64,000 nt of DNA from positions 1 through 64,000 of the IMG/VR virus record IMGVR_UViG_3300020492_000001. The stretch is one strand, 5' to 3'. The notes below the pieces were generated by a model. The model was not told where the DNA came from. It did no database searches and saw only the letters and a list, made by a program, of their open reading frames with translations. A program made the position numbers and the translations under genes. Positions 1 through 60,125 of this stretch are shown in pieces. Source of the stretch: a virus. Its lineage: Duplodnaviria > Caudoviricetes. Each line of letters opens with the position of its first letter. Position 1 is the first letter of the stretch.

Positions 1-1409
1 CTAATAGCTCCTTGGGTAAAACTATTAACATAACTACCAAATGATTTAGCATCAAAGGCATCTGTTCCAAATTGTCCTCTCTCATCAGGAGTTAATTTAT
101 CCCATAATTGTTCACCTGCTTTTTGAGCAAAATCAGTAGCAACTTCATTACTACCTTCTTCAAACATATCTTTTACTACTTGTCCACTTTTTAATCCAAC
201 CTTTGCTAAAGTAGAATACTCAGTACTAAAATCTTTCATCACTTGCTTAAATCCATTTTTAGTAAGTAAACCTGTTGTAGCATCAGTTTCAGCTTTTTTA
301 ATTATGTTTTTAAGAACCTCTCTCTCTCCTGATTTAAAAGCGTTAGACATAATCTTACCTTCTAAACCAAAAGCAGCGTCAATAGCAGATTTTACAGTAG
401 CAATTCCTAATGAAACAGCACCCTTATCTCTACCTTCTAACCCAGCCTCCTCAGCAGCATCTCTAGTTTCTCCGATATTAGTGAAGAAACTTCCTGTAAA
501 TATAGCTCCTAATTTCCCTGCTTTACCTAAATCTAAAGCCTTATCTATTCCTTTGTAACCATACTTTAAAGCCTTAGCTCCTTTTAACCATGTAGCTCCT
601 GTTAATGAACCTAATCCAAATTCTGTGAATGATTCGGCTGTTGAATTAAATGTACCCCATAAAGCTTGTGGACTAAAATCAAATCTATCTTTATCTAATA
701 AGTCAGCCCATTTAGTTATACCTTCCATGTTATAAACAGGTCTATCTAAATCAGCATCTTTTTCAAATTTTAATCCTTCTATTGCATTTTTTCCGCTTCT
801 TAAAGTTTCAGATTCATCTCCTGTTACTAACTCATATCCTGATTGAGCAACGTCAACAACTCCACCCATTAATCCAAATACTCCATTAGCTAAACTCTTT
901 CCTATATCTTGCCAAGCATTATCATCTTTAGCAGATTCTTTAGTTCCCCAAATACTAGCAGCGTGGTATCCAACAGGTATTTTCTCTCCTTGCTCTAAAG
1001 CAATAGGTTTATAATTACCACTATTTTCATCACGTTTCATGTAGTAATCAGGTGTTGTCCAACTATTATCTATTTGTTTTGCTTTTTTACCTTGTAGAGT
1101 CACTATAGCATCTGATAATTCCTCCTTAGAAGTCAAAGGATTTTTCATCATATTTTTCAATATATCCTTTTCATCATCACGCATAGTCCGAAGAGAATTT
1201 TCTTGGATAAAATTTAATGTACTATCTATCTCTAAATCTTGAGGAGTTGTATATTTAGGTAACTCTACATTACTATCCCTGTCAAAAGTTCTAGTATCTA
1301 CAACTTCCTTCTTTACAATATTATTAGGATTGTATTCAGGAATATCAGAATTAGAATTAACTTTTTCTTTACGAACTATGTTGTTTGGATTGTATATTGG
1401 ATCTGGCAT
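1..1409 (-). CDS. 5' part of a large virion (cargo/ejection-type) protein, truncated by the window edge
   Basis: Not in the ORF track. Read manually from ATG at 1409 (MPDPIYNPNNIVRKEK...DNAWQDIGKSLANGVFGLMGGVVDVAQSG...), open to position 1. Function inferred from position after the tail genes. Confidence 0.7.
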   Translation of the reverse strand, partial: MPDPIYNPNNIVRKEKVNSNSDIPEYNPNNIVKKEVVDTRTFDRDSNVELPKYTTPQDLEIDSTLNFIQENSLRTMRDDEKDILKNMMKNPLTSKEELSDAIVTLQGKKAKQIDNSWTTPDYYMKRDENSGNYKPIALEQGEKIPVGYHAASIWGTKESAKDDNAWQDIGKSLANGVFGLMGGVVDVAQSGYELVTGDESETLRSGKNAIEGLKFEKDADLDRPVYNMEGITKWADLLDKDRFDFSPQALWGTFNSTAESFTEFGLGSLTGATWLKGAKALKYGYKGIDKALDLGKAGKLGAIFTGSFFTNIGETRDAAEEAGLEGRDKGAVSLGIATVKSAIDAAFGLEGKIMSNAFKSGEREVLKNIIKKAETDATTGLLTKNGFKQVMKDFSTEYSTLAKVGLKSGQVVKDMFEEGSNEVATDFAQKAGEQLWDKLTPDERGQFGTDAFDAKSFGSYVNSFTQGAI

Positions 1410-1410
1410 A

Positions 1411-2847
1411 TTATCTTGATTTACCTAAATATTGTTTTGTTTGAGCGTCAAACATATTACCTTGATTATCGTACTCTATTTCTCTTGTTGGGATATTTTC
1501 AACATCACCCATCTCTCCTATTTGTTTAGAAGTTTCACCTACCGCATTATTTAATTTAAAAGCATAAGCTTGATTTTTCTCAGGGTCAAATACGTGTTGT
1601 GTTTTTAACTTATAAACAGGCTCTTTATCTTTACCGCTTTCATAAGAAACTTCAATATTCTTTTTCATAGAAGGCTCATCTAGCCATCCTAATTCATCCA
1701 TTTCTTTTTTAGAATAAACAGAGTAACCGTGTATAACTCCAATTCCTTTATTTGAACCTTTAGCATATTCACTAATTCTACCATCTTTTGTTTTATATGG
1801 CTTTACTCTAACTACACCATTAGCTCTTACATAACTTCCTATAGGAATAAACTCACGTCCACTCTCGTCTTTTATATAATTTCCATCAGCGTCATAAATT
1901 TTAACAGTAGGTTTAACTCCAATCATTTTAGTTAAATTTTCAGCTCCAGGATAAGAAGATCCTGAATCTCTAATCATTTTATTATATGTATCAATAGGTC
2001 TTCCTGAACCTCCTTTAGCATCTTCCATGTCCATTTTACGTTTCCATTGAGCAGCTATCAAAGCATGATTAGGTTCTCCAAATTTACGCTCTAGTTTAAT
2101 ACCTGCTCTTATCATCTCAGCAGCAGCTTGTATTCCTTCTTCGTCAGTCTTAACTCCATTTTGAACTTGGAATTGTCTCTTTCTTTGATTATATAAATTA
2201 ACTGCTAGTGGACGCAAAGTAGCATCATCCACTAATTGATGGTATCCACCATTTCCATCTTGTTGATATTTATCAGAACGATATTTATTACCTACTTCTA
2301 TTGCAGTAGTCGGTAAATCAATAAAATCTTCAGGTTTATCATAAACGAATGCTTGTGGACCAAAAGTAGCAGCAGCCTCTTGTCCGTCTTGATGTCCATA
2401 CTTTAGATAGTTTTGTTTCTTAGCTAATAACTCTTGGTAAGCTCCTGCATCGTATTGATTAGGATTCTTTGCTACTTTAGCTAAATCATCATTTAATCTT
2501 TTAAAAGACTCATCTGATGCCATTCCTCTAATAACGTTTTGATTAGATTTAAGGTATTTCTTCTTCTCATTAATTTGTCTTCTTACATTAGGATTATATC
2601 TAAAGTCAGGATTATCTCTAATAATAGTTCCTATCTCACGAATGGTTTTATCCGCCTCTCCTTTAATTAAATTATAGTCATAAGAGTTGGCAGCATTCAT
2701 GTAATCTAAGTCATCCTCAAATGCCTTTAACTCAGCCGTATTCTCGGCTTGAGCGCGTTTCATTTGTTGGTCTTGATACCTAGCATCAGCAATACGTTGG
2801 TCGTATCCTAAATCTACTGCGAGTCCTTTGGCTGTTCCCCATTCCAT
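1411..2847 (-). CDS. putative virion cargo/ejection protein (478 aa)
   Basis: Helical, charged protein between two large virion-type genes; function from synteny only. Confidence 0.45.
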   Translation of the reverse strand: MEWGTAKGLAVDLGYDQRIADARYQDQQMKRAQAENTAELKAFEDDLDYMNAANSYDYNLIKGEADKTIREIGTIIRDNPDFRYNPNVRRQINEKKKYLKSNQNVIRGMASDESFKRLNDDLAKVAKNPNQYDAGAYQELLAKKQNYLKYGHQDGQEAAATFGPQAFVYDKPEDFIDLPTTAIEVGNKYRSDKYQQDGNGGYHQLVDDATLRPLAVNLYNQRKRQFQVQNGVKTDEEGIQAAAEMIRAGIKLERKFGEPNHALIAAQWKRKMDMEDAKGGSGRPIDTYNKMIRDSGSSYPGAENLTKMIGVKPTVKIYDADGNYIKDESGREFIPIGSYVRANGVVRVKPYKTKDGRISEYAKGSNKGIGVIHGYSVYSKKEMDELGWLDEPSMKKNIEVSYESGKDKEPVYKLKTQHVFDPEKNQAYAFKLNNAVGETSKQIGEMGDVENIPTREIEYDNQGNMFDAQTKQYLGKSR

Positions 2848-2971
2848 GTGTAAAATATTTGTTGTTAAAGATATAAAATTTTATAACTCATTATAAACAA
2901 AAAATAGGAATATTTCTACTCCTACTTTTAATTCATTCGTTGATTATTTTAATCATCATTATTAATACTTG

Positions 2972-2999
2972 TTTAACGTAAGTTATTTTAAAAGGTTAC
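2972..2999 (-). promoter_or_regulatory. ECF-like promoter motif
   Basis: GTAACC-N15-CGTTAAA. Confidence 0.6.
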
Positions 3000-5900
3000 G
3001 TTGTAGGGGTATAATTATTTAAACTATATCCTCTAGCCTCGTCTGCTTTTAATCTAGCTTGTTGGTCTTGTCTAAATCTATATGCTCCAATAGTATTAGC
3101 TAATCCTGCGCCTATTAATTCACTTCCTGCTTGTTGTTTTTGCTGAAAGGTATTCATAGCATCGTTATAAGCTTGTCTTCTATTAGCTGCTAATATAGTT
3201 GCTCTATCAGCCGCCATTACATCAGCATATTTTTGCTTATTCATTCTCATCTCAGAGTCAGCTTGTTTTAAGCCTAATTTATTCTTCCAAGCATCGTTAA
3301 TAGCAGCTCTGTTACGATTAAATGAATCAGATGCGCTAGCATTTAACCCTGCAAATTTAGCATCGTTTAATCCGCCTTGTATATCTTGCTCTGCCATGAA
3401 TCTTTGCTCAGGAGTTAATCCGAATAAAGCATCTTGTTGAGCGCGGTTAACAGCAGCATTATAAGTTGGGTCTATTACAGCTTTATCAATAGGACGTTTC
3501 TCTTTGCCTAGCATATTTAATCCTAATGCAGATTGTCCTATTCCTACGAATGCAGTTGGGTCAATATTACTTAATTTATCCGCCCAAGCGTTTTTAGATT
3601 TAGGTTTTGACGCTAAATAATTTTCATTATTTACTACATTAGCATCGTTTATAACAGCTTGTCTTGTTGGTGCATTAGCAATAGAAGCCTCTTGCATAGC
3701 AGCTTGATTAGCAGTCTTTAATTCAGCATCTTGTTTTAATCCTTGTAAAGACAAATCCTTAGTAGGTAAATTATCTACTGTTACTTTAGAAGCCTTTACT
3801 TTAGGTGCTTTTAAAGATGGTTTAGCTGTAGGTATATTTTCAGTAACTACACTTGGCTTAGTTTCCGCTTTAGGAGCTACTTTATTTGTCGCAGCCTTAA
3901 CTTCTGCGACATCTTGTTTAACTTCAGTCGTAGGCGATTCCGTTGATTTACTATCTTCAACCGCTTTTGTTTTTTTGTTTTCATTAAGTAATTTATTAAC
4001 ATTAGCTATCTCTTTACCTATGTCAATAGTTTTTTTCTGAAGATTAATCTTAGCTATTATATTCCCAGAATCAGCGTCTTTTTTAATATCGGCATATTCT
4101 TTAAGAAGGTCTTTTTTTCTTTGAACAAGAGCTTTTTCTTCATTTTCAACTTGCTTAGTCGTTTTATTAACAACATTATCTTTGTAAGGCTTATTTTCTT
4201 TTGGATTAAAAACTTCTAACTTAGGTCTAGTCTTAGCACTTTCATAAAGCGATACTTTATCTTTTAAAACGCCTTTAGCCTTATTTAAGTATCCTAATTT
4301 ATCATTTTCTATTTTATCATTTAGCTTCTTAGTAGATTCATGATTGTCTGTAACCTTTCTGTCTTTTTTAAAATCATTTAGCTCTTTTTCTAATTTAGAC
4401 ACTTCTTTTTTAGCATCCATAACTTTTTTAGCGTTAGCCACAATCTCATCATTATTATCAACGTCTCCGCCTAAAGCATATCCTTTCATCTTAGGAGCCA
4501 TAATCTCACCTCCTTCTGCCCATGTTGTTCTTGCATAAGCTCTGAAATGAGGATTGTTATCTAAGTTCTCTTTATGTCTTGCGTAGAAAGCTTTTTTTCT
4601 TTCAATGTCTTTAGGATGTTGTCCTAAGTTAGGGTCTCCAAAGTATTTTACAGTTCCATCTGGTCCTGTTACTTTATGAGTTTTACCTTCTCTATCACCT
4701 GACCTTTGAACTACATATCCGCCCATTTTCATTTCTTCACTATTATTTTCTGAGTTAGGAGCTAAATCTTCTAATTCAATACCAATAGATTCTAAGTATT
4801 CATTCTCTTCAGGAGTAAACAAATGTTCTCCATTAGATAGTTTTACCGCTTCTCCTTCTTCTTGTTTAAGATTAGCTTTCTTATTAGGAGCTTTTAAATA
4901 TAGTTTACGAATACCTTTTGCTAGTTCTGCATTCTCGGCAGGCACTACAAATGAGCCTTCTTTTACTTCAGCCATTATACTGTCTGATTTAGCAGTTCCT
5001 TTACCTTTAATATCTCCGCCGTCAGCATACATATTTTTTATTTTACCAACTACACCACCTCTATTCATCATAGGACGATTCTTATCGAATTGTTGTCCAT
5101 CAGCCAATATCATGTTTTGATTCTCATCAAATGTAACTCCGCTTAAATTATAAGGATTAGTTATTGTAGGATTTTCTTCTTGGTTATTTCTAGCTAATAT
5201 TGCTTGTTGTTGTTTAGATGCAGTGTTAGCATCTTTTACTTCTTGAAGTTGTTTCTGAGCTTTATCTTCTAATGACTTAGTATATCCTTTTCCTGATACA
5301 TCAGTCCATCCTCCAGCATAAGAACTTCTTGTAGCTAAGGCTTTACTTGGACTTAAAAAACTTGCTCCGATAGCTGTTGTTCTAGCATCAGATTCGTTAT
5401 TAAGTTTTCCTTCTGCATTCATTGATTCTTTTCTAGCCTTAATAGGTTTTCCTATCTTATCTCCTATTGCAGCTATTCCACCAATCATTCCTCCTATTGG
5501 TCCCATTTGAGATGCGGCTGCTAATCCTGCGTTTCTTGCAGATTCTCCTTCATTTTGTGCAGGTTGTGAATTGTAATAAGCTGAGCCTATACCTCCCATT
5601 CCTTCTCCTATTCCATTGGCTACATTTCTAACTTTTTGTTGATTAGCTTTCTTTTTATTTTCATCTATAGCCTTTTTAGCTTGCATATTGTTTTGAGCAG
5701 TATATTGATCATTCATTCCAACTACGCCACTTCCAAATGTATCTATTGGTTTATAAGAACTGTTTGAATCCCCATAGGTTCCATCAATATTCATATTAGG
5801 ATTATAGACAGGACCTCCATCATAATATCCTTTAATCTTACTTACAATACCACCTTTAGCAAACTTACCTTTAATCTCAATAGGATTATCTATATTGTAC

Positions 5901-46922: not shown

Positions 46923-47189
46923 ATGACACCAAAAGAAAAAGCAATAGAATTAGCAGATAAATATTTTCCTGTAGTAGGCGATATTGATAGAATGAAATGT
47001 AACTCTCCAAGAATATATATGGGTTTTGTTGTACAATGTGCTTTAATAGCAGTTGATGAAATATATAATGGTGGCTTGAATTTACGTTATGGAGCTTATT
47101 TAGATGAATTTGAAGATAAACAAAACTATTATTCTTATTGGGAAGATGTTAAAAAAGAAATAAATCAATTAATAACTAAAAACAAATAA
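46923..47189 (+). CDS. small hypothetical protein (MTPKEKA family)
   Basis: First 23 nt identical to 45756..45998. Confidence 0.6.
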   Translation: MTPKEKAIELADKYFPVVGDIDRMKCNSPRIYMGFVVQCALIAVDEIYNGGLNLRYGAYLDEFEDKQNYYSYWEDVKKEINQLITKNK

Positions 47190-49189: not shown

Positions 49190-49262
49190 TGTCTGATGGT
49201 GTAACTGGCAACACGACTGATTTTGGTTCAGTAGAGTCTAAGTTCGAGCCTTAGTCAGACAA
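49190..49262 (+). tRNA. tRNA-Gln(UUG)
   Basis: Acceptor TGTCTGA/TCAGACA, anticodon arm ACTGA-TTTTGGT-TCAGT, T-arm CTAAG-TTCGAGC-CTTAG; no encoded CCA. Confidence 0.85.
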
Positions 49263-49532
49263 CGAGCTAGTTCGAGTCTAGTCGCTAACCGAGCGTCATA
49301 ATGACGGCAGGGACATAAAAAATCCTACAAGGCAGGTTTGACTGATGGAAAGACATCAAATATTAAAGCCCGTTTGACGACTCGGCGGATGAAGAAGAAA
49401 GACTGCAATACCTAGGTAAGTTGTAGTAATAGAGTCGTAGTATTAAAACCATGGCGGTGGTAAAAATAATAGGTGCCAAGACACTCAGTTTAAACATTGG
49501 TAAATGAAGGACGTTCAGCCTATTGTTTTTTT

Positions 49533-50116: not shown

Positions 50117-51682
50117 ATGATAAAGAACTTGCGTGGATACCAACAAGAAGTAATATGTAAAGTAGAAGATGCTTTAAAATCAGGAGTTAGCCGCCAGCTT
50201 GTTTGTATGGCAACTGGTTTAGGTAAAACTTTTACGGCAGTCAAGATAGTTGAGAAGCTACAATTCAAGCGTATTTTATGGATTACACATAACGAGGAGT
50301 TAATCCAACAATCTGGACTTGCATTCCTTAAAGATAAGTTTGACGATACATTTGCTAAACACGTTCAAGATATAGGCTTCTTAGATTGGGTTGATAAACA
50401 TAACTGTAATTTCGGAAACCATACAGGAACGTTTAAAATGGGTGCAATTAAAGCCTCTGTATTTAAGATTAATGCAGAAGTTACTATGGCATCAGCACAA
50501 ACTCTCTACAGAAGACTAGATAAGATTCCATTTGATTATTTCGATTGCATCGTAGTTGATGAATGTCACCTCTTCATGGCCAAGACGTTCCTACAGCCAT
50601 TAGAATACTTTAAGCCTAAATTACTACTTGGACTTACCGCCACGCCGCATCGTATGGACGGCTTATCTCTAGGCAACATATTTGAGCAAATAACCTATGA
50701 GTATAATATAGGACAAGGTATTAAAGATGGTTACTTATGTGAGTTAGACGGAATAAGAGTACAAACTAATGTGTCATTAGATAACGTAAGAACAACCGCA
50801 GGAGAACTTAATCAGAAGGATTTAGCAGATGAAGTAAATATTCCTAGACGTAACCAATTAATTATAGATAAATACAAGGAATACGCTGATGGAAGACAAG
50901 GAATATTCTTTTGTGTAGACATTCAACACGCTTGCGATTTAGCGGATATGTTTATTGAAAATGGTATTAGCTGTAAACCTATTGTTGGAGATGAAGAATT
51001 TACTCCTGATAGAGTTGGTACTATACAAGATTTTAAAGATAGAAAGATACAAGTCCTTACTAATTGCCAGATACTTACTACTGGTTTTGATGAGCCAAAC
51101 GTAGGGGTAATCGGTAATGCTTCTCCAACAAAGTCTTTAACTAAGTATATGCAGTCTGTTGGGCGCGGATCAAGATTAAAAGATAAAGAGTTCGTAGATA
51201 GATTTGGACAAAACTGTGTAATCCTAGACTTTGTAGATTCAAGTTCAAGACATAAGTTAATCAATACATGGACACTAGATCAAGGAAAGAACTTAGAGGA
51301 TAGAGTATTCTTAACTCAGGATAAGAGAGACTATATATTAGAAGAAAGAGCTAGAAAGTCTGCTAAAGTTGAAAATTTAACTGATAAGGATGAGAGAATA
51401 AAGCTAATTGAATTACCTCCTGCTAAACAATTTGGATGGAAGAAAATGCAAGAAGCGGCAACATCCGCACAATTAAAATACATATCTGATTTAGGACACG
51501 ATATTCAAAACAATACTTACACTAAACAGCAATGCGCGGATATTATATCTTTAGAGCCTTGTAATAAAAAAGAGATAGAATATTTGAAATCTAAAGGATA
51601 TGACACTACATTTGCCACAAAGGGCCAATACGGCACAATTTACTACGAATTAGAAATGAAAAACAAATGGAAAAAGAAGTAG
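50117..51682 (+). CDS. superfamily 2 (DExH, ResIII-like) helicase
   Basis: LRGYQ Q-motif, MATGLGKT, VVDECH, GLTATP, LTTGFDEP, QSVGRGSR. Confidence 0.92.
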   Translation: MIKNLRGYQQEVICKVEDALKSGVSRQLVCMATGLGKTFTAVKIVEKLQFKRILWITHNEELIQQSGLAFLKDKFDDTFAKHVQDIGFLDWVDKHNCNFGNHTGTFKMGAIKASVFKINAEVTMASAQTLYRRLDKIPFDYFDCIVVDECHLFMAKTFLQPLEYFKPKLLLGLTATPHRMDGLSLGNIFEQITYEYNIGQGIKDGYLCELDGIRVQTNVSLDNVRTTAGELNQKDLADEVNIPRRNQLIIDKYKEYADGRQGIFFCVDIQHACDLADMFIENGISCKPIVGDEEFTPDRVGTIQDFKDRKIQVLTNCQILTTGFDEPNVGVIGNASPTKSLTKYMQSVGRGSRLKDKEFVDRFGQNCVILDFVDSSSRHKLINTWTLDQGKNLEDRVFLTQDKRDYILEERARKSAKVENLTDKDERIKLIELPPAKQFGWKKMQEAATSAQLKYISDLGHDIQNNTYTKQQCADIISLEPCNKKEIEYLKSKGYDTTFATKGQYGTIYYELEMKNKWKKK

Positions 51683-52450: not shown

Positions 52451-52478
52451 GTAACCTTTTAAATTTATATACGTTTAA
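52451..52478 (+). promoter_or_regulatory. ECF-like promoter motif at the head of the cassette array
   Basis: GTAACC-N15-CGTTTAA, 6 bp before hairpin 1. Confidence 0.7.
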
Positions 52479-52484
52479 ATAGAT

Positions 52485-52614
52485 AGATAACGTTGAGTAT
52501 ATATGTTCGGTTGCGATTAATAGCACGAACTTATCAATTTAAACAAAACTTAATAGAATGAACAAAATTTCAAATAAACACGAAACCGCAACTGACATAT
52601 ATACTGTGTTATGT
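52485..52614. repeat. attC-like hairpin 1
   Basis: AGATAAC-GTTG-AGTATATATGTTCGGTTGCG ... CGCAACTGACATATATACT-GT-GTTATGT. Confidence 0.85.
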
Positions 52615-53010
52615 GCTGCCTTTTGTGGTGCTGGTAAAACATTTATTTGTGATAAAACAGATATAAAGGCAGTTGAAGTTGAATATTGGAAGTATAAAGA
52701 AAAAGGACTGTTCAAAGAATATATTGAAGATGTTAAGAAGTATATCGGTAAGGTAGATTACATCTTTATTGCAACAGAGCCAGAAGGAATGAAATTGCTA
52801 CATGATGAAGGATTTGAAATAACTCTTGTTTACCCAAAAAATGAACTCCGAAACGAATATTTGGATAGATACATTGAGCGTGATAGTCCTTATGATTTTA
52901 TTGGAACATTTATGAAGCATTGGCATATATGGATTGATGAACTTAAAGAGCAAAAATATTGTAAGCATATTATTTTGGATTCAGGACAATACTTGCAGAA
53001 TGTTCTTTAA
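52558..53010 (+). CDS. cassette 1 ORF: P-loop kinase-like protein
   Basis: VLCAAFCGAGKT Walker A; starts inside hairpin 1. Confidence 0.65.
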   Translation: MNKISNKHETATDIYTVLCAAFCGAGKTFICDKTDIKAVEVEYWKYKEKGLFKEYIEDVKKYIGKVDYIFIATEPEGMKLLHDEGFEITLVYPKNELRNEYLDRYIERDSPYDFIGTFMKHWHIWIDELKEQKYCKHIILDSGQYLQNVL

Positions 53011-53016
53011 GGTTGC

Positions 53017-53109
53017 ACATAACGTTTTGCGGCTTGGCGAAGGCTGCCTAACGGATGCTCAATTTTCGCACAAATTTCAATGGCAGCTTTTGCCAAACCG
53101 CTGTTACCT
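53017..53109. repeat. attC-like hairpin 2
   Basis: ACATAAC-GTTTT-GCGGCTTGGCGAAGGCTGCC ... GGCAGCTTTTGCCAAACCGC-T-GTTACCT. Confidence 0.85.
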
Positions 53110-53418
53110 GCTGGGCGGTTTATCAGTAGGAACTTAAAAATAATATTCAAAATGTTGCCAAAAGAAAAAGCACAGGAACTTGTAAGCAAGTTTAAAGATT
53201 ACGTTCACGGATATGTTGGTAGCTCAATGCTTACCAACCATGAATACCCTGAACAAATTTTATCACAAGCAAAGAAAGTAGCAATTATTGTTGCAGATGA
53301 AATGCTCCATCAATACACTACTTTAAATGCTGATTTAATAAACGCATTGTATCGAACAGAAAAGGTTGTCTTTTGGCAACAGGTCAAAATAGAAATTGAT
53401 TATGTGTCGGAATTGTAG
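53080..53418 (+). CDS. cassette 2 ORF: MTPKEKA-family protein (alternative start at MLPKEKA)
   Basis: MLPKEKAQELVSKF...AIIVADEM...FWQQVKIEI. Confidence 0.6.
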   Translation: MAAFAKPLLPAGRFISRNLKIIFKMLPKEKAQELVSKFKDYVHGYVGSSMLTNHEYPEQILSQAKKVAIIVADEMLHQYTTLNADLINALYRTEKVVFWQQVKIEIDYVSEL

Positions 53419-53424
53419 CCTTGC

Positions 53425-53557
53425 AGGTAACGTTTCGCAGCTATATTTAGTTGCGATTTTGAAAAACAAAAGTTTAATTAATAAATAAAAGTAAATATGA
53501 AAAACAAAGTTGAAAATAAGAGCAATAATAAGCAATTGAATATACTAGCTGTTAGGC
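53425..53557. repeat. attC-like hairpin 3
   Basis: AGGTAAC-GTTTC-GCAGCTATATTTAGTTGC ... GCAATTGAATATACTAGC-T-GTTAGGC. Confidence 0.8.
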
Positions 53558-53940
53558 GTAGTTTTTTTAACTTCAAGTATAAATGGCCATTAAGAAAATA
53601 CTGGCTTAATTGGTTTAAAAGAGATGTTAAGAGATGGTATTATTCTAAAATACACGGTTTTAAAATGGGTGTATTTGATGGAACTATGATTCCAACTACT
53701 GGTAAAGGTAAATATGTATCTGTTTATTCTAAAGGTGAAATAATCCAAATTAAACATGAAAGCGGTTATGAACATTTAGAGTATGATGAAATTAGAATAA
53801 TACCATGTCAAGAAAATCACGGTGTAATGGTTGAAAGATTTAAAACAGGAAAAATGTGCGATAGAAACCACATGGATTTAAAGCAATTTAATAAAGGTAT
53901 AATTTTCGCTTCCAATGTTGAACAGTTGGCTGGTCGTTAA
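53497..53940 (+). CDS. cassette 3 ORF, hypothetical
   Basis: Starts inside hairpin 3, stops 6 nt before hairpin 4. Confidence 0.6.
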   Translation: MKNKVENKSNNKQLNILAVRRSFFNFKYKWPLRKYWLNWFKRDVKRWYYSKIHGFKMGVFDGTMIPTTGKGKYVSVYSKGEIIQIKHESGYEHLEYDEIRIIPCQENHGVMVERFKTGKMCDRNHMDLKQFNKGIIFASNVEQLAGR

Positions 53941-53946
53941 AATTAC

Positions 53947-54082
53947 GCCTAACGTTTTGCAACTTGCATTAGTGCCTTGCAAAAATACGAGTAGCTTCGG
54001 ATTAAAAAAGAACACAACAAATAAAAAACAAACATTAAATTAACAACCAAGCCAAAGGCATTGATGCAAATTGCTGTTATGC
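53947..54082. repeat. attC-like hairpin 4
   Basis: GCCTAAC-GTTTT-GCAACTTGCATTAGTGCCTT ... AAGGCATTGATGCAAATTGC-T-GTTATGC. Confidence 0.85.
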
Positions 54083-54107
54083 GCTGGCAAAAAAAAAATT
54101 AAAAATT

Positions 54108-54422
54108 ATGAGTACAATTATCGAAGACATTCAGTTTATGAAATCAATTTTGCCTGAACACTATGAGGTAAAAGAAAGTAAAAAATCAGGTTCAATTCAT
54201 TGTAAATCAAGTATTGGATTAAGAAAAACGCCATACAATAGTTTTGATAGTTTTAAACGACCAATTATTGTTGATGATGCGGAAGATGAAGAACAATGGT
54301 TTTATATCGTTGAAGCTATTAAAGCAAAGTTTGGCGAAAGGTTACAGGAAATTGACCATAACACTTGTTTTTGCCACGTCGATTTCACGATTTATCTGCG
54401 GTTTTCCGTTGCTTGCGCATAA
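54108..54422 (+). CDS. cassette 4 ORF, hypothetical
   Basis: Stop codon is the TAA of the next site's GCATAAC. Confidence 0.6.
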   Translation: MSTIIEDIQFMKSILPEHYEVKESKKSGSIHCKSSIGLRKTPYNSFDSFKRPIIVDDAEDEEQWFYIVEAIKAKFGERLQEIDHNTCFCHVDFTIYLRFSVACA

Positions 54423-54548
54423 CGGTTTGCAGCTAAACGAGGTGGCTGATTAATACCTCGAAACTTAATTAAAAGAACAAAATTATGAACACAGACAAAA
54501 GTTTATTAGAAGAACAAAGCAAGCCATCTTTTTTAGGTGCTGTTATGT
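54417..54548. repeat. attC-like hairpin 5
   Basis: GCATAAC-GGTTT-GCAGCTAAACGAGGTGGCT ... AGCCATCTTTTTTAGGTGC-T-GTTATGT. Confidence 0.85.
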
Positions 54549-54691
54549 GCCGTTTTTTATTCCAATACAGAAGTATGGATAAAGATTTAATGGTACATAT
54601 TGAAGCAAGTAGTTTAAATTATGCAATGGTGAAATTTGCAACTCACTACCATTTAATTGATGAAGTGTATGAGATTGCAAGGGTGTCCTAA
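54485..54691 (+). CDS. cassette 5 ORF, hypothetical
   Basis: Starts inside hairpin 5 (…SFLGAVMCRF is encoded by the right arm). Confidence 0.6.
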   Translation: MNTDKSLLEEQSKPSFLGAVMCRFLFQYRSMDKDLMVHIEASSLNYAMVKFATHYHLIDEVYEIARVS

Positions 54692-54697
54692 AATGGC

Positions 54698-54847
54698 ACA
54701 TAACGGAAAATAATAAACGTATGTGTTGGTGTGTGGTTAAAGTGTTCCTCTGGCTAATGGACAAGTACCATAACCGTAAGTGCCTAAAACTTACCATACC
54801 ACGCTACGGGCGGAACACGCCAACATTACGTTTATTTATTGTTAGCA
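54698..54847. repeat. attC-like hairpin 6
   Basis: ACATAAC-GGAA-AATAATAAACGTATGTGTTGG ... CCAACATTACGTTTATTTATT-GTTAGCA. Confidence 0.75.
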
Positions 54848-54862
54848 AATCGTTTTAATGTT

Positions 54863-54941
54863 TGCTAACGGCATCAAGCTAAAAGCTGACCGCCTAATAA
54901 GCGGTTAGTATATGGCGGTTTGATTTTAGGTTGTGTTATGT
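54863..54941. repeat. attC-like hairpin 7
   Basis: TGCTAAC-GGCAT-CAAGCTAAAAGCTGACCGCC ... GGCGGTTTGATTTTAGGTTG-T-GTTATGT. Confidence 0.8.
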
Positions 54942-55003
54942 TGGTGCGATGGCAAGTGTGTGAGGCAGTTTTATTTTATTAATTTTTAAAAAAGCGGAGG
55001 AAA

Positions 55004-55216
55004 ATGGAAAACTTATACTTTAGAAAAAAACTTATATGGGCTGAAATTGAGCGATTAAAACACGAACTTGAAAAGAATCAAGAGTTTATTAACTTATTTC
55101 AAAAACAAAACAATGATTTGCTAAAACAGATTGAAAAGCAATTTAAAGAAATAGAAATTGTTGGAGAGCAATTACTAAAAATAGAAACAGAACAATTAAT
55201 AAAACATGATTTATGA
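55004..55216 (+). CDS. cassette 7 ORF a, coiled-coil hypothetical
   Basis: Heptad pattern. Confidence 0.55.
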   Translation: MENLYFRKKLIWAEIERLKHELEKNQEFINLFQKQNNDLLKQIEKQFKEIEIVGEQLLKIETEQLIKHDL

Positions 55217-55482
55217 CAACAGAAAAACCACTTAGAAAAACAGGCAGTTATATAGTAATTGCCAAACGTTGGAGCAGCGAACAATCACATAATTACATTG
55301 TAGATTTATGCTCAGGAATTGATTCAGCTAAAGAAATTGCAGAAAATGAAATGCGAGAGCGTGGCGGTAAATATGGGATACAGATAATTGCTTTTAGAGA
55401 AGATAACAACGAGCAAGAAATTGTTTTTGAAATTGAAAGCCCATATAAGAATAAGGTAAATATACCTACTGATAACGCTTAG
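55213..55482 (+). CDS. cassette 7 ORF b, hypothetical
   Basis: ATGA overlap with ORF a. Confidence 0.55.
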   Translation: MTTEKPLRKTGSYIVIAKRWSSEQSHNYIVDLCSGIDSAKEIAENEMRERGGKYGIQIIAFREDNNEQEIVFEIESPYKNKVNIPTDNA

Positions 55483-55519
55483 GTGCGTAGGCTTTTAAAA
55501 ATTAATAAAATAAAATTGA

Positions 55520-55606
55520 ACATAACGGTTTGCAGCTAATAGAAGGCTGTAATTACACAAAAATATATGAGCTGTTAACTCAGCTTTTTATTAGGTGCTG
55601 TTAGTA
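55520..55606. repeat. attC-like hairpin 8
   Basis: ACATAAC-GGTTT-GCAGCTAATAGAAGGCTG ... CAGCTTTTTATTAGGTGC-T-GTTAGTA. Confidence 0.85.
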
Positions 55607-55655
55607 CCAGTAGCCAAATTAAAATTTAAAAACAATAACAATTAAAAACTAAAAT

Positions 55656-55934
55656 ATGAAAAACAACAAAGAACAATCGTACCAATACGCTGCAATTATA
55701 CAAGGCGCAATAGCAGAAATGTTAAATGAAGATAGTGATAGCGATTATAGAATATCGTTAAGCGATTTTGATGATGAGGATAAAGCAACTGCATTTTTGC
55801 ACGCATTAGCTAATATAGTGCCTTGTAATATCTATAAAAAATTAACTCAAGATGATACTGACATTTTAGGTTTTAATCATATCGCTAATAGATTAGTATA
55901 TCAATTTACAAAGCAGGACGAAGCCGAAGATTAA
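55656..55934 (+). CDS. cassette 8 ORF, hypothetical
   Basis: Fills the interval between hairpins 8 and 9. Confidence 0.6.
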   Translation: MKNNKEQSYQYAAIIQGAIAEMLNEDSDSDYRISLSDFDDEDKATAFLHALANIVPCNIYKKLTQDDTDILGFNHIANRLVYQFTKQDEAED

Positions 55935-55951
55935 ACATCAAAGGCTATTAG

Positions 55952-56082
55952 TACTAACGGTTGGTGCTTTATTTAGTGCCGACTTAACAGATAAAATTTA
56001 ATTGAAACACAAATGAAAAATAAAAAGACAAAAGTAAAATCGAAGCCGAAAACTAAGGCATTGAATAAAGCACTTGTTAGCA
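55952..56082. repeat. attC-like hairpin 9
   Basis: TACTAAC-GGTTG-GTGCTTTATTTAGTGCC ... GGCATTGAATAAAGCAC-TT-GTTAGCA. Confidence 0.85.
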
Positions 56083-56270
56083 GTAGTGCCTATGTGCGTT
56101 ACCGCTACTCAGGTAAATCTTCTTCAATATTTTGGGATATAGTAAATTCATTACCAAAAGATGCAGACAGACAAGAGATGTATGCTTTAGGATGCGTTTT
56201 GCAAAATGTTGAAGAAGATGTGTTGAGAACACTAAGGAATATTAACAGCAAGTATGTGCGTGGCAAATAG
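56013..56270 (+). CDS. cassette 9 ORF, hypothetical
   Basis: Starts inside hairpin 9. Confidence 0.6.
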   Translation: MKNKKTKVKSKPKTKALNKALVSSSAYVRYRYSGKSSSIFWDIVNSLPKDADRQEMYALGCVLQNVEEDVLRTLRNINSKYVRGK

Positions 56271-56277
56271 GCATTAC

Positions 56278-56411
56278 TGCTAACGTTCTGGCGGTTGGCG
56301 TTCGTTGCCGACTTTGGAACACTAAACTTTCACTTTTAAAATAAATTTGATATGGAACACAAAACTTCAATAAACCACGAAAACGGCAATGACGCCAACC
56401 GCTTGTTACCA
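56278..56411. repeat. attC-like hairpin 10
   Basis: TGCTAAC-GTTCTG-GCGGTTGGCGTTCGTTGCCG ... CGGCAATGACGCCAACCGC-TT-GTTACCA. Confidence 0.85.
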
Positions 56412-56579
56412 GCAGTTAGTTGGTATAAATCATTATCGCTCAACCAAAAGATGGCGCTCAAAGAAGTATCAGCATTAATTTGTGGAATGAAATGGGAAGA
56501 TTTCAATATTCTATTCAGTCCACGAGAAAGACTTGAGATATTGCACAACAAATTAATATTGGAAGGTTTCCTTGTCTAA
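56352..56579 (+). CDS. cassette 10 ORF, hypothetical
   Basis: Starts inside hairpin 10. Confidence 0.6.
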   Translation: MEHKTSINHENGNDANRLLPAVSWYKSLSLNQKMALKEVSALICGMKWEDFNILFSPRERLEILHNKLILEGFLV

Positions 56580-56583
56580 TTGC

Positions 56584-56681
56584 TGGTAACGTTTTGCAGC
56601 TAATAGAAGTGGCTGCTTGTAAGAACTTCTGAATTATAAACAAATGCTTGTAGCAGCCATTTTTGTTAGGTGCTGTTATAA
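56584..56681. repeat. attC-like hairpin 11
   Basis: TGGTAAC-GTTTT-GCAGCTAATAGAAGTGGCTGCT ... AGCAGCCATTTTTGTTAGGTGC-T-GTTATAA. Confidence 0.85.
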
Positions 56682-56700
56682 GCTGTAAAAATTACGACTT

Positions 56701-56907
56701 ATGAAAACGTATTTATCATTTTACGGAGATTGTTATTACCCAAGCGGTGGTATGGGTGATTTTATTGGAGATTACGACACCAAAGAAGAAGCGATACAAG
56801 CTATTGAAGAAGCTCACAAAAAGAACCGCCCTGATGATTTAGAATGGGAGTGGGCTTGGGCTAATGTTTGGAGTGCACATGACCGAATCGAAGTGTACAC
56901 TAAGTAA
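56701..56907 (+). CDS. cassette 11 ORF, hypothetical
   Basis: MKTYLSFYGDCYYPSGGMGDF; fills the interval. Confidence 0.6.
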   Translation: MKTYLSFYGDCYYPSGGMGDFIGDYDTKEEAIQAIEEAHKKNRPDDLEWEWAWANVWSAHDRIEVYTK

Positions 56908-56917
56908 TTTTTATTGC

Positions 56918-56981
56918 TTATAACGGATGAAGCCTTACCCAGCGAAGGTGTCGACCGAGTTGGGTAAGGGTTGGGTTATAA
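56918..56981. repeat. attC-like hairpin 12 (shortest, 64 bp)
   Basis: TTATAAC-GGATG-AAGCCTTACCCAGC ... GTTGGGTAAGGGTT-GG-GTTATAA. Confidence 0.85.
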
Positions 56982-57032
56982 GCTGACGGTTACTAATGTT
57001 ACTATGAAAAACAATTTAAAAAAAATAACGAT

Positions 57033-57218
57033 ATGATTGAAATAGAAGAATTATTTGGTGGAAATGATGCCGAAGAACACAATGTTTTATACACTATTAT
57101 TAAAAATAGAGGATATAAATATTTTGAAGAAACACCCAAAACAAGTATGACTTGCGGATTAATTAAAGATTTACACGAACTAAATTACGAGATTGTAAAA
57201 AAAAACGTTTCAAAGTAG
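57033..57218 (+). CDS. cassette 12 ORF, hypothetical
   Basis: Fills the interval between hairpins 12 and 13. Confidence 0.55.
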   Translation: MIEIEELFGGNDAEEHNVLYTIIKNRGYKYFEETPKTSMTCGLIKDLHELNYEIVKKNVSK

Positions 57219-57229
57219 CTACCGTTTGC

Positions 57230-57353
57230 TTATAACGGTTCGCAGATAAACGCAGTTTTATGAAACAGAAATTAGATATAGAAAAAATTAGAGAGTTGGA
57301 AACCATAGCTAAAGAATTAGATGCTGAAAAATTGCGTTTATCTGCTGTTAGCA
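57230..57353. repeat. attC-like hairpin 13
   Basis: TTATAAC-GGTTC-GCAGATAAACGCAGTTTT ... AAAATTGCGTTTATCTGC-T-GTTAGCA. Confidence 0.85.
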
Positions 57354-57457
57354 AATCGGTTTGCGACCACTCTTGGATGAACACAGGATTATCAGTACAA
57401 GGCAAAAGTTTGATGGTATGCACCAAATGTAGGGAAACCAAGCAAACTGTTTGCTAA
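57260..57457 (+). CDS. cassette 13 ORF: coiled coil plus CDH..C..C zinc-ribbon-like tail
   Basis: VCDHSW...MVCTKC; starts inside hairpin 13; stop is the TAA of the terminal TGCTAAC. Confidence 0.55.
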   Translation: MKQKLDIEKIRELETIAKELDAEKLRLSAVSKSVCDHSWMNTGLSVQGKSLMVCTKCRETKQTVC

Positions 57458-57480
57458 CTATTATATGTAAACTACCCTTT
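57452..57480. other. candidate attI-like primary recombination site
   Basis: Lone TGCTAAC box not followed by G or a hairpin arm; TGCTAAC-TATTATAT-GTAAACT; 67 bp upstream of the recombinase start. Confidence 0.55.
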
Positions 57481-57525
57481 AAACTAACAGCAAAATCAAT
57501 ACTCTTTAATTAAAAAATCGAAAAT

Positions 57526-58359
57526 ATGAATTTAGAAAAGTGGATAAATAGATATAAAACTGATTGTGCTTTAAAGTATAATAGTGATGCAACCAAAGAA
57601 AATTACACTTCTGGAGTTAAATCTTTTCTTATAAAATTCGATAAATATTCTGAGCCTAAAGAAATACCGACTCAGGAAATTAAAGAGTATTTATTGACTT
57701 TTAAAACGATAAATACACGAAAGCATAACCTTTGCTCTATTAAATCTTTCTATAAATTAACTGTAGGTATGCCAAGCAAGATTGATAAGATTCCTTATCC
57801 TAAGTCTGATAAGAAACTACCTATCGTTCTTTCTGTAAACGAAATTCAAAGAATGTTTAATGTCTGCCAAAATAAGAAGCATAAAGCAATTTTAGCTTTA
57901 CTGTACTCTTGTGGATTACGTGTATCGGAACTTATAAATTTGAAATGGAAAGATATTGATAGAAGTAGAATGGTAATTAATATAATCCAAGCTAAGGGAA
58001 ATAAGGATAGGCAAGTCCCATTATCTCAAGATTTGATTAATGTATTAGAAAGTTACTGGAATGAGTACAAGTCCGCCGAGTATGTTTTTAATGGACAAAA
58101 ATCACTGCAATACACAGATAGAAGTGTAGGAGAAGTAATTAAACAGTTGGCAGATAAAGCAGGAATATGTAATAAAAGGGTTTACACACACCTTATGCGT
58201 CATTGCAGCTTTACGCACATGGTTGAGAACGGAACTGATATTTCGCTTATCCAAAGACTCGCTGGACATTCTAGTGTAAAAACGACTAATATCTACCTCC
58301 ATATCAGCCATAATCACATAAGTAAAATCCAAAGTCCACTAAGTAATATTAAATTATAA
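57526..58359 (+). CDS. tyrosine recombinase, IntI-related/XerD-like (277 aa)
   Basis: LPIVLS..E, LYSCGLRVSE (R), AKGNKDR (K), HLMRH (HxxR), LAGH, TNIY (Y), C-terminal IQSPL. Confidence 0.92.
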   Translation: MNLEKWINRYKTDCALKYNSDATKENYTSGVKSFLIKFDKYSEPKEIPTQEIKEYLLTFKTINTRKHNLCSIKSFYKLTVGMPSKIDKIPYPKSDKKLPIVLSVNEIQRMFNVCQNKKHKAILALLYSCGLRVSELINLKWKDIDRSRMVINIIQAKGNKDRQVPLSQDLINVLESYWNEYKSAEYVFNGQKSLQYTDRSVGEVIKQLADKAGICNKRVYTHLMRHCSFTHMVENGTDISLIQRLAGHSSVKTTNIYLHISHNHISKIQSPLSNIKL

Positions 58360-58374
58360 CTCAAACTTGAATTA
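58357..58374. promoter_or_regulatory. 18-bp palindrome copy
   Basis: TAACTCAA-AC-TTGAATTA, overlapping the recombinase stop codon. Confidence 0.7.
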
Positions 58375-58757: not shown

Positions 58758-60125
58758 ATGGACTTAAAACAAAAAGAAAGAGAAGTACTTAATCTATTTG
58801 CGGATAATGCTGATTTATTTGTTAATTGTGAACACTTGGTATTTGAAAACTTATGGTCCACAAACTTTAATAAGGTTAAATTCAAAATTATAACTTATAA
58901 TCATAGTAAAGGTAAGAAATCTGACATTTACCTGCTCTCTAATATGCTTATTAAGGCAGGTTGTAACAAAAAAGAAATCGGACTTGAAGTGTCTGAGCCT
59001 AATTATAAAATCGCTAAGAATGTAGATGAGTATGTTAAGGATATTTTTGATGAGTATTCTAAGCGACAATTAACTCCATTACTTCAAAGAGTTCACTCAG
59101 AGCTTAGTTCTGAATTAGGAGATGTAAATAGCTGTTTAGAAGATTTAAAGACGGCAGTGAACGATATAGAGAGTATTAAGAATAATCTTTCTGTAGATAA
59201 AAAAGCAACTGATATTTTTGATCAAGCATTTAACGAGTTAATGGAAGCTCAGAATAATATAAAAGAGATAGTTGGTTATTCTACAGGGCTTAAAGATTTA
59301 GATAAGATGTGTGGTGGACTAAAACAAGAGGTTATTGTTATTGGAGCGCCTCCTGGTTCTGGTAAAAGTTCATTAATGGTAAACATCGTTGATAATGTAG
59401 CTATCAAACAAGGTAAGCCTGTTGCTGTGTTTTCTTTAGAGATGCCTGCTACTCAATTAATGAAGAATATGTGGGCCAACAACCTTACAATTAATTCTTA
59501 TGCGATACGTGGCGGAGGATTGTTAGATGAAGATTTAGTAAAAGTAAAGAAGTACAAGCAAAGATTAAAAGATAATTTAGTCATAGATGACACCCCAGGA
59601 ATTACTTGGCAGTATATGGAGACTAGAATAAGAAAGATGCGTAAAACAGTTCCTATGAATGAATTGATAGTTGTTATGGTAGACTATATTCAAATTATGA
59701 GAAATACTATTGAGGAGACAAGAGGGATTAGTAGTGAAGAGCAATTAGGATTAAGAAGTAACGGCTTAATGGAACTTTCTAAGAAATATAATCTTTGCAT
59801 GATGGAATTATCTCAATTATCTAGGGAAGTTGGTAAGAGAGAGAATAAAAAGCCTGTAATGGGAGATTTAAAAGGCTCAGGAGCTATTGAAGCAAACGCT
59901 GTACAGATATGGTTACTCTATAGGCCAGACTACTTTGAAACCGATCCTATGGAGAATGGAATGTCTTTAAAAGGACTCTGCGAGATTAATATGGCTAAGA
60001 ATAGATATGGAGAGACAGGTAGAAGATATGTAAGATTTGAAGGTAAATACTCAGCATTTAAAGATTTTGATATTAATGAAGTTAATGGATTAGTAACAGG
60101 AAGTAGCAATGGAGATGAGTTCTAA
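58758..60125 (+). CDS. dnaB: replicative DNA helicase
   Basis: GAPPGSGKSS, FSLEM, VDYIQ, LSQLSR, DLKGSGAIE, AKNRYGETG. Confidence 0.92.
   Translation: MDLKQKEREVLNLFADNADLFVNCEHLVFENLWSTNFNKVKFKIITYNHSKGKKSDIYLLSNMLIKAGCNKKEIGLEVSEPNYKIAKNVDEYVKDIFDEYSKRQLTPLLQRVHSELSSELGDVNSCLEDLKTAVNDIESIKNNLSVDKKATDIFDQAFNELMEAQNNIKEIVGYSTGLKDLDKMCGGLKQEVIVIGAPPGSGKSSLMVNIVDNVAIKQGKPVAVFSLEMPATQLMKNMWANNLTINSYAIRGGGLLDEDLVKVKKYKQRLKDNLVIDDTPGITWQYMETRIRKMRKTVPMNELIVVMVDYIQIMRNTIEETRGISSEEQLGLRSNGLMELSKKYNLCMMELSQLSREVGKRENKKPVMGDLKGSGAIEANAVQIWLLYRPDYFETDPMENGMSLKGLCEINMAKNRYGETGRRYVRFEGKYSAFKDFDINEVNGLVTGSSNGDEF

Follow-up and report, generated by a model that had tools for sequence, protein, structure and literature searches.

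A probable phage-encoded, integron-like cassette array with an adjacent Xer-like tyrosine recombinase

The question raised by the locus described here is whether a phage can carry its own platform for the capture and shuffling of gene cassettes. The window analysed is a stretch of 64,000 nucleotides that forms the first 64 kb of a complete phage genome of 76,304 bp with direct terminal repeats (IMG/VR record IMGVR_UViG_3300020492_000001). Positions 52488-58359 of the window hold 13 cassettes, each with a hairpin-forming site, followed by an attI-like site and a gene for a tyrosine recombinase. A sequence-only reading of this DNA had taken the arrangement for an integron-like system. The data presented below support that reading through cassette shuffling among relatives, the structure of the junctions and a conserved geometry, and qualify it in that the domain specific to the integron integrase IntI is missing. 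The segment is very likely to be a phage-encoded integron-like platform, in which exchange takes place at TAAC|G (the bar marks the point of exchange), most probably through the adjacent Xer-like recombinase.

In the mechanism proposed, the recombinase most likely cuts at TAAC|G, the cassettes would be excised as circles, and these would be reinserted at an attI-like sequence, TAAC|TATTATATGTA, located 67 nt upstream of the recombinase gene. Expression of the cassettes would probably occur by read-through of the + strand operon that includes the helicase genes.

Cassette order and content in related phages

Relatives of the phage recombinase were found at 31 loci in IMG/VR. Where the recombinase is 97-100% identical, the flanks are kept up to 52494-52497 and from 57452-57455, and the interior differs. 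When cassettes were numbered by sequence cluster, the order in the window was 15-16-17-18-5-19-20-21-2-6-7-22-23, followed by the attI-like site. Loci L004 and L006 have the order 9-7-6-5-8-2 and then the attI-like site, L007 has ...8-2, L003, L030, L031 and L032 have 3-4-1, and L008 has 24-1. Cassettes held in common are 97.7-100% identical in DNA sequence, and the backbone 81-99%. Numbered instead by position in the window (cassettes 1 to 13, as listed below), cassette 5 has a 100% identical copy at a different position in L004 and L006, cassettes 10 and 11 are both found in these two loci but in reversed mutual order, and cassette 9 adjoins the attI-like site in L004, L006 and L007.

The new joints consist of the left parent up to TAAC and the right parent from the following G, and the overlap between parents is limited to the 5 nt TAACG. 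On the recombinase side the joint always reads xxTAAC|TATTATATGTAAAC, and at the opposite end of the array it reads backbone-AGATAAC|G. Contigs assembled from other lake runs join or end at 52492-4, 53018-20, 54419-20, 54706, 56277-81, 56586-7, 56920-4 and 57452-5; parts of the array that these contigs do not cover were not counted as evidence. In lake run X8, cassette 11 (56587-56921) has a depth of ~189 as against ~12 for the backbone, a difference of ~15-fold. The comparison of cassette content and order called for by the sequence-only reading therefore revealed gain, loss and reordering precise at TAAC|G in near-identical phages, and not the fixed gene order that would have spoken against it. 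As the relatives differ by cassette order and content and not by inversion, the locus does not qualify as a shufflon or other invertase system.

It might be argued that the differences are assembly artefacts, as metagenome assemblers can be misled by repeats, or that the sites represent miniature transposable elements whose movement depends on a transposase of the IS200/IS605 type or one associated with repetitive extragenic palindromes, given that single sites are 84-89% identical in unrelated phages. However, each arrangement repeats in independent metagenomes, that of L004 being shared with L006 and L007 and that of L003 with L030, L031 and L032, while the window order is present in four runs with a word share of at least 0.99, and the sites are too dissimilar for assembly collapse. 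The sites also lie in one orientation and in one array, with one recombinase alongside, and no transposase of these types was detected among the scanned genes near the array, a genome-wide search not having been made. Artefacts or transposable elements are thus extremely unlikely to account for the array.

Sites and cassettes of the array

Sites were sought with the pattern TAAC...GTTA with paired inner arms, using a cut-off of DNA duplex energy ≤ -13 kcal/mol; the duplex-energy scan was chosen because an ungapped stem scan misses 3 sites. Across the whole 64-kb window 12 sites pass this threshold, all of them within 52488-57350 and all best on the + strand, whereas shuffled versions of the window (n = 10) gave 0-2 matches each, with a mean of 0.7. 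The 13th site (53428-53554), at -11.9 kcal/mol, is less stable than the cut-off requires. A covariance model, trained on 56 sites from the phage array and related loci, matched 12 of the 13 array sites with E values of 1e-20 to 8e-3, and had zero matches outside the array, whether in the window or in the 76,304-bp genome as a whole. The claim of 13 sites with a common architecture was hence borne out by the scan, the shuffled controls and the covariance model. One weak TAAC...GTTA hairpin lies outside the array at 47000-47151 (-12.6 kcal/mol, equal on both strands); it is not matched by the covariance model and is probably due to chance.

A cassette starts at the G that follows one TAAC, ends with the next TAAC, and includes the site first and then a small gene on the same strand. 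The sites are all in direct orientation, and the features of the array are as follows (ORF, open reading frame).

52488-52491, + strand: distal array end, backbone ...AGATAAC|G; relatives agree leftward and differ rightward
52488-52611, + strand: site 1; cassette 1 is 52492-53023, with ORF 52558-53010 starting in the loop
53020-53106, + strand: site 2; cassette 2 is 53024-53431, with ORF 53152-53418
53428-53554, + strand: site 3; cassette 3 is 53432-53953, with ORF 53497-53940 starting in the loop
53950-54079, + strand: site 4; cassette 4 is 53954-54423, with ORF 54108-54422
54420-54548, + strand: site 5; cassette 5 is 54424-54704, with ORF 54485-54691 starting in the loop
54701-54844, + strand: site 6; cassette 6 is 54705-54869, with no ORF
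54866-54941, + strand: site 7, of a short class; cassette 7 is 54870-55526, with ORFs 55004-55216 and 55213-55482
55523-55603, + strand: site 8; cassette 8 is 55527-55958, with ORF 55656-55934
55955-56079, + strand: site 9; cassette 9 is 55959-56284, with ORF 56013-56270 starting in the loop
56281-56408, + strand: site 10; cassette 10 is 56285-56590, with ORF 56352-56579 starting in the loop
56587-56678, + strand: site 11; cassette 11 is 56591-56924, with ORF 56701-56907
56921-56978, + strand: site 12 (58 nt); cassette 12 is 56925-57236, with ORF 57033-57218
57233-57350, + strand: site 13; cassette 13 is 57237-57458, with ORF 57260-57457 starting in the loop
57455-57525, + strand: attI-like region; core TAAC|TATTATATGTA (57455-57469), then two TAAACTA repeats
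57526-58359, + strand: complete gene for a Xer-like tyrosine recombinase of 277 aa

Covariation indicates that the secondary structure of the sites is under selection. RNAalifold predicted 14 stem pairs from 56 sites, and all 14 carry compensatory double changes. Among 110 unique sites, sizes range from 48 to 220 nt with a mode of 120-129 nt, and in 100 of them the + strand gives the more stable duplex (p = 4e-17). TAAC and GTTA are invariant, the G after TAAC faces the T before GTTA, and a T-rich bulge of 4 nt is confined to the TAAC side and has conserved G-T and C-A positions. The stem further includes a near-invariant T-A pair and another near-invariant T that is usually opposite G. The earlier statement that the sites share structure with little primary sequence therefore holds for the structure and has to be softened for the sequence, as a weak consensus (aTTgc..aTAACG.TT ... 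TGTTAt..G..G) with a few near-invariant stem positions exists. The greater stability of the + strand, together with the one-sided bulge and its conserved G-T and C-A positions, provides indirect support for folded single-stranded DNA as the putative substrate.

All cassette ORFs are on the + strand, which is the folding strand, and are directed toward the attI-like site and the recombinase gene. In 6 of the 12 cassettes that bear an ORF, the start lies inside the hairpin loop and coding continues through the right arm. Right arms within ORFs initially appeared to contradict the existence of cassettes. This concern was resolved by the junctions, which place the crossover at the left TAAC only; ORFs can start in the loop because both arms and the gene form one unit with its crossover at the left TAAC|G. 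In cassette 13, the TAA stop codon of the ORF sits within the terminal TAAC.

The cassette proteins matched no Pfam family, and in PHROGs only families of unknown function. The ORF of cassette 1 encodes a protein of 150 aa that is Walker-A-like and belongs to PHROG 4182 (function unknown). Cassette 6 consists almost wholly of a 144-nt hairpin, with matching cassette ends. At locus L028, where the recombinase is only 63% identical, 476-559 and 1105-1151 match 54920-55003 and 55480-55526 of the window at 97-98%, and the part of cassette 7 between the two end pieces has no DNA match. This suggests replacement of genes inside conserved cassette ends. The presence of one promoter per cassette was considered and dropped, since the + strand of the array has only two copies of the Bacteroidota -7 motif TAnnTTTG; a sigma-70 promoter scan showed no excess, and no tRNA gene was detected within the array.

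Cassette ends and the position of the crossover

The ends of the cassettes carry a further record of exchange. The 7 nt after GTTA were compared with the 7 nt that precede the terminal TAAC of the same cassette, taken as reverse complement, and 4.83 of 7 positions agreed on average, mostly 5-6. Against the physically adjacent flank, which belongs to the neighbouring cassette, the value for the same 7 nt is 2.20 of 7, and permuted pairings gave 2.15 +/- 0.16 with a maximum of 2.74 (n = 54 unique cassettes). These self-complementary ends are the footprint of units that were once circular. As the two ends of each cassette are complementary to each other, joining them completes an outer stem of ~9 bp, and the crossover is thereby fixed at the left TAAC|G. 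Under the classic integron rule, the final bases of an attC stand at the beginning of the cassette to which that attC belongs, and the end complementarity of the phage cassettes is the mirror image of that rule.

Hairpins of this kind could instead act in RNA, as sense-strand elements for processing, translation control or termination, with the differences between relatives arising from ordinary homologous or illegitimate recombination as in T4-type stem-loop cassettes. The sense strand is indeed the one that folds better, and the six ORFs that start in a loop mean that folding could gate translation. However, the junction partners have only 5 nt in common, complementary cassette ends make sense only for a circular DNA form, and the chromosomal sites found in Flavobacterium (see below) are antisense to the genes. 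Furthermore, a terminator scan gave no excess (4 found, 2.7 expected), and a search of 50-60 kb against Rfam returned nothing relevant. Function in RNA is for these reasons a very unlikely explanation of the array, and the integron-like reading is retained in what follows.

The recombinase and the attI-like region

The sequence-only reading had placed a complete tyrosine recombinase gene next to the array, and this is the case. The 277-aa product of the gene at 57526-58359 has a SAM-like and a catalytic domain, and the catalytic residues R132, K157, H222, R225, H248 and Y257 are all present and invariant across the family. It is the sole gene of the genome that belongs to PF00589. In profile searches the recombinase scored 198 bits for XerA, 175 for XerD, 164 for IntI and 162 for XerC, where the curated cut-offs are 220, 330, 265 (TIGR02249) and 335, respectively. 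It is below every curated Xer and IntI cut-off, and hence cannot be called an equivalog of XerC, XerD or XerA. TIGR02249 matches in two pieces, model positions 6-180 and 243-314, and the intervening 181-242, corresponding to the IntI-specific domain, is represented by 20 residues only. The closest solved structures are XerA-type and XerC-like recombinases (PDB 4a8e and 5hxy), and the alignment to IntI4 (2a3v) ends at residue 172, ahead of the insertion. The domain of ~35 aa near patch III that marks an integron integrase is therefore absent from the phage enzyme.

The lone half site TGCTAAC said to end the array was confirmed at 57452-57458, 67 nt before the ATG of the recombinase. Left of its TAAC the sequence varies with the last cassette, and right of it the sequence is conserved to the recombinase ATG. 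The motif TAAC|TAYTATATGTA, with variants, is located ~55-70 nt upstream of the ATG at more than 40 viral and metagenome-assembled genome (MAG) loci, at which the recombinases are 56-100% identical and the sequence left of the motif is variable. From this pattern, insertion of cassettes would take place at the attI-like site. The stretch that separates the attI-like core from the start of the recombinase has two direct TAAACTA repeats (57470-57500), and other lineages have their own short-repeat pairs at this position. By analogy with DR1 and DR2 of attI1, these may be accessory binding sites.

At the 20 loci with both sides available, 49 sites are found upstream and 1 downstream within 2 kb of the recombinase. 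Read on the minus strand, the recombinase is directed away, the attI-like core is G|TTAGCA, and every cassette is closed by a site with its cut at G|TTA. In integron terms, the + strand is equivalent to the bottom strand, the recombinogenic one. The integron geometry that had been read from the minus strand thus holds, and it is conserved over loci with 56-100% identical recombinases. Loci with a recombinase of 82% identity or less have none of the window's backbone genes in common, and hence the module sits in different phages. A scan of genome contigs gave MAG contigs only, many of them phage-sized, and is uninformative on lysogeny.

The same sites in other phages and in Flavobacterium chromosomes

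Sites of the same type are not confined to phages with this recombinase. The Flavobacterium siphophage snusmum6-1 (GenBank accession number MN812234; L001 141-3563) has at least 8 among small genes and two DNA methyltransferase genes, and one of these is ~89% identical to site 4 of the window. Several are also found in the 642-kb phage LR756502 (L002 2594-3462), including one that is ~84-87% identical to site 2. At E ≤ 1e-5 the covariance model further matched the genomes of 88 of 101 Flavobacterium species, often with at least 31 sites, and the matches are grouped in chromosomal arrays, each on one strand and at least 20 kb long. The system is therefore phage-encoded as had been proposed, but it is not phage-specific. 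In the three genomes examined (G032, G074 and G025), such an array has at one of its ends the best relative of the phage recombinase, ~345 aa long and encoded on the other strand from the sites:

G032:C1:3734500-3746500 (L060): Flavobacterium array
G074:C1:229000-245000 (L061): Flavobacterium array
G025:C12:208-228 kb: Flavobacterium array

At the G032 and G074 loci the sites and the cassette genes are on opposite strands, as in canonical integrons, whereas the phage arrays have the reverse polarity. The G032 recombinase is 40% identical to the phage recombinase and is likewise without the insertion, and a sequence resembling the attI-like core, CATAAC|TATCTTATAC, adjoins its gene. Within L060, two sites that are 137 nt and 126 nt long and 527 nt apart occur as a pair four times.

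The Polaribacter phages Freya and Leef encode recombinases that are ~31% identical to the one described here. No TAAC/GTTA sites were detected in the scan of Freya, and Leef has one clear candidate site only; sites in Freya, if any, would be of another type. The records Freya_1 to Freya_10 (MT732463-MT732472) range from 43,978 to 48,920 bp in length, and the integrase starts at positions from 71 to 4168. This spread could reflect a variable block of small genes upstream of the integrase or, equally, the point at which circular records were opened.

These distributions bear on a further explanation, in which the sites are served in trans by a recombinase of the host, of the Flavobacterium type, and the phage recombinase serves a different purpose, for example dimer resolution or integration, and is a chance or hitch-hiking neighbour of the array. 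The occurrence of the same sites in phages without any tyrosine recombinase is consistent with this, as is their presence in the 88 Flavobacterium genomes and beside a related recombinase. However, at more than 40 loci, across 56-100% identity and different backbones, the recombinase gene is directly bordered on its 5' side by the attI-like motif and the array, and sites accumulate on the upstream side of the gene (49 vs 1). In addition, the gene polarity of the phage cassettes is opposite to that of the chromosomal cassettes, which argues for a separate phage pool. Service by a host enzyme is on balance improbable.

Several observations nevertheless weigh against a phage integron-like platform run by the adjacent recombinase. 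Neither snusmum6-1 nor LR756502, both unrelated to the window phage, encodes a tyrosine recombinase, and a host enzyme such as the 40%-identical Flavobacterium recombinase could act in trans on phage sites. The role of the phage recombinase as catalyst is one that we infer from its association with the array. The IntI insertion (helix I2 region) that this enzyme does not have is reported as required for folded attC (Cury 2016, PMC4889954). The + strand bias of the sites is equally expected of sense-strand RNA structure. Finally, the lake-run data are assembled contigs, which are blind to circles and to heterogeneity within the population.

Genome context

The genome encodes a large terminase, a portal protein and a major head protein, and DNA of the phage is present in freshwater and lake metagenomes. 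The large terminase has only ~24% identity with its counterparts in crAss-like phages that infect Bacteroides, Flavobacterium and Cellulophaga; the earlier description of the phage as crAss-like therefore stands only in a distant sense. The array lies in a + strand block with the order SNF2/ResIII helicase gene (50117-51682), small ORFs, recombinase gene (57526-58359) and DnaB helicase gene (58758-60125). A gene for tRNA-Gln (anticodon TTG) is found at 49190-49263 on the + strand, and the SNF2 helicase gene follows ~0.9 kb downstream of it. The backbone is mosaic: in relatives L003-L007, where the recombinase is 100% identical, DnaB is only 68% identical, and in the same relatives the SNF2 helicase is 57-96% identical and the adjacent small genes are 97-100% identical.

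Comparison with known systems

For the promoter stem-loop 'mobile regulatory cassettes' of T4-type phages, movement has been attributed to homologous recombination between repeats that are nearly identical. The array resembles these cassettes in that small accessory genes flanked by stem-loops occupy a plasticity region of a phage and are shuffled among relatives. It differs in that the recombining partners share 5 nt only and in that a recombinase and an attI-like site are attached.

Xer recombinases (XerA, XerC/D) provide the best profile and structure matches to the phage enzyme, with which they share domains, length and the absence of an insertion. Unlike Xer resolvases, however, the enzyme scores below the cut-offs, is phage-encoded and heads a cassette array instead of adjoining a dif-like site, no search for dif having been made.

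The closest parallel is with integrons, in particular sedentary chromosomal integrons such as the Vibrio superintegron with its ~125-nt repeats, in which the recombinase is likewise directed away from the attI-like site and the cassettes form a one-way array. Like attC, the phage sites are imperfect palindromes with an AAC/GTT core and a structure conserved over sequence, and the 13 same-orientation sites, the 14 covarying stem pairs and the site sizes make up an attC-type array. The crossover at G|TT is on the strand complementary to the folding strand, the cassette ends are of the circle type, and cassettes without an ORF or of unknown function are included, as in integrons. Cassettes are gained, lost and reordered at G|TT in close relatives, and their ends are circularly permuted. 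In contrast to integrons, the phage genes are on the folding (bottom) strand with the site 5' of the gene, and half of them start in the loop; the integron arrangement, in which top-strand genes are transcribed outward and their promoter is at the attI/intI end, is thus not what is found. The spacer of the phage sites is one-sided, being 4-5 nt at AAC and ~1 nt at GTT, the recombinase is without the IntI-specific insertion, and the carrier is a phage with terminal repeats in which the array lies inside a + strand block of helicase genes. The phage system hence resembles an integron in its working, but the accepted definition excludes it on account of the IntI domain and the gene polarity. IntegronFinder would probably label it a cluster of attC sites lacking an integron integrase (CALIN; at least 2 attC, no IntI), if its attC model accepts the sites.

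This bears on how integrons are defined. In IntegronFinder surveys, IntI is defined by its extra domain, and integrons are almost absent from Bacteroidetes (Neron 2022, PMC9024848). Tyrosine recombinases without the extra domain near attC were discarded as 'not IntI' (Cury 2016). Here, a recombinase without that domain heads a 13-cassette array with cassette-exact shuffling. If the phage enzyme is the catalyst, integron-type recombination would have a wider reach and a simpler mechanism than has been assumed, lytic phages would possess a device dedicated to the exchange of small early genes, and a compact new recombinase-and-site pair would become available as a candidate tool. We lean towards the wider view that a large family of short Xer-like recombinases without the IntI insertion runs true integron-type capture of hairpin cassettes across Bacteroidota, that phages have their own platforms and pool of opposite polarity, and that phage and host maintain separate, rapidly shuffled libraries of accessory genes, possibly for counter-defence and defence. 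If this view is true, integron-type recombination would be independent of the IntI insertion. The turnover of accessory-gene regions in phages becomes a directly testable question.

In full-text literature searches, no description of a phage array with its own recombinase was found, the nearest being integrase-less phage attC clusters (Qi 2023, PMC9892861). These clusters were reported from virulent phages, including a phage of Polaribacter (Flavobacteriia), with attC-type sites between small genes that often encode DNA methyltransferases, and IntI1 recombined one Polaribacter-phage site as bottom strand. That study described no recombinase of the phages' own, attI or cassette turnover for virulent phages. 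In contrast, the array described here is accompanied by a cognate-looking recombinase and an attI-like site, and its cassettes are shuffled among relatives.

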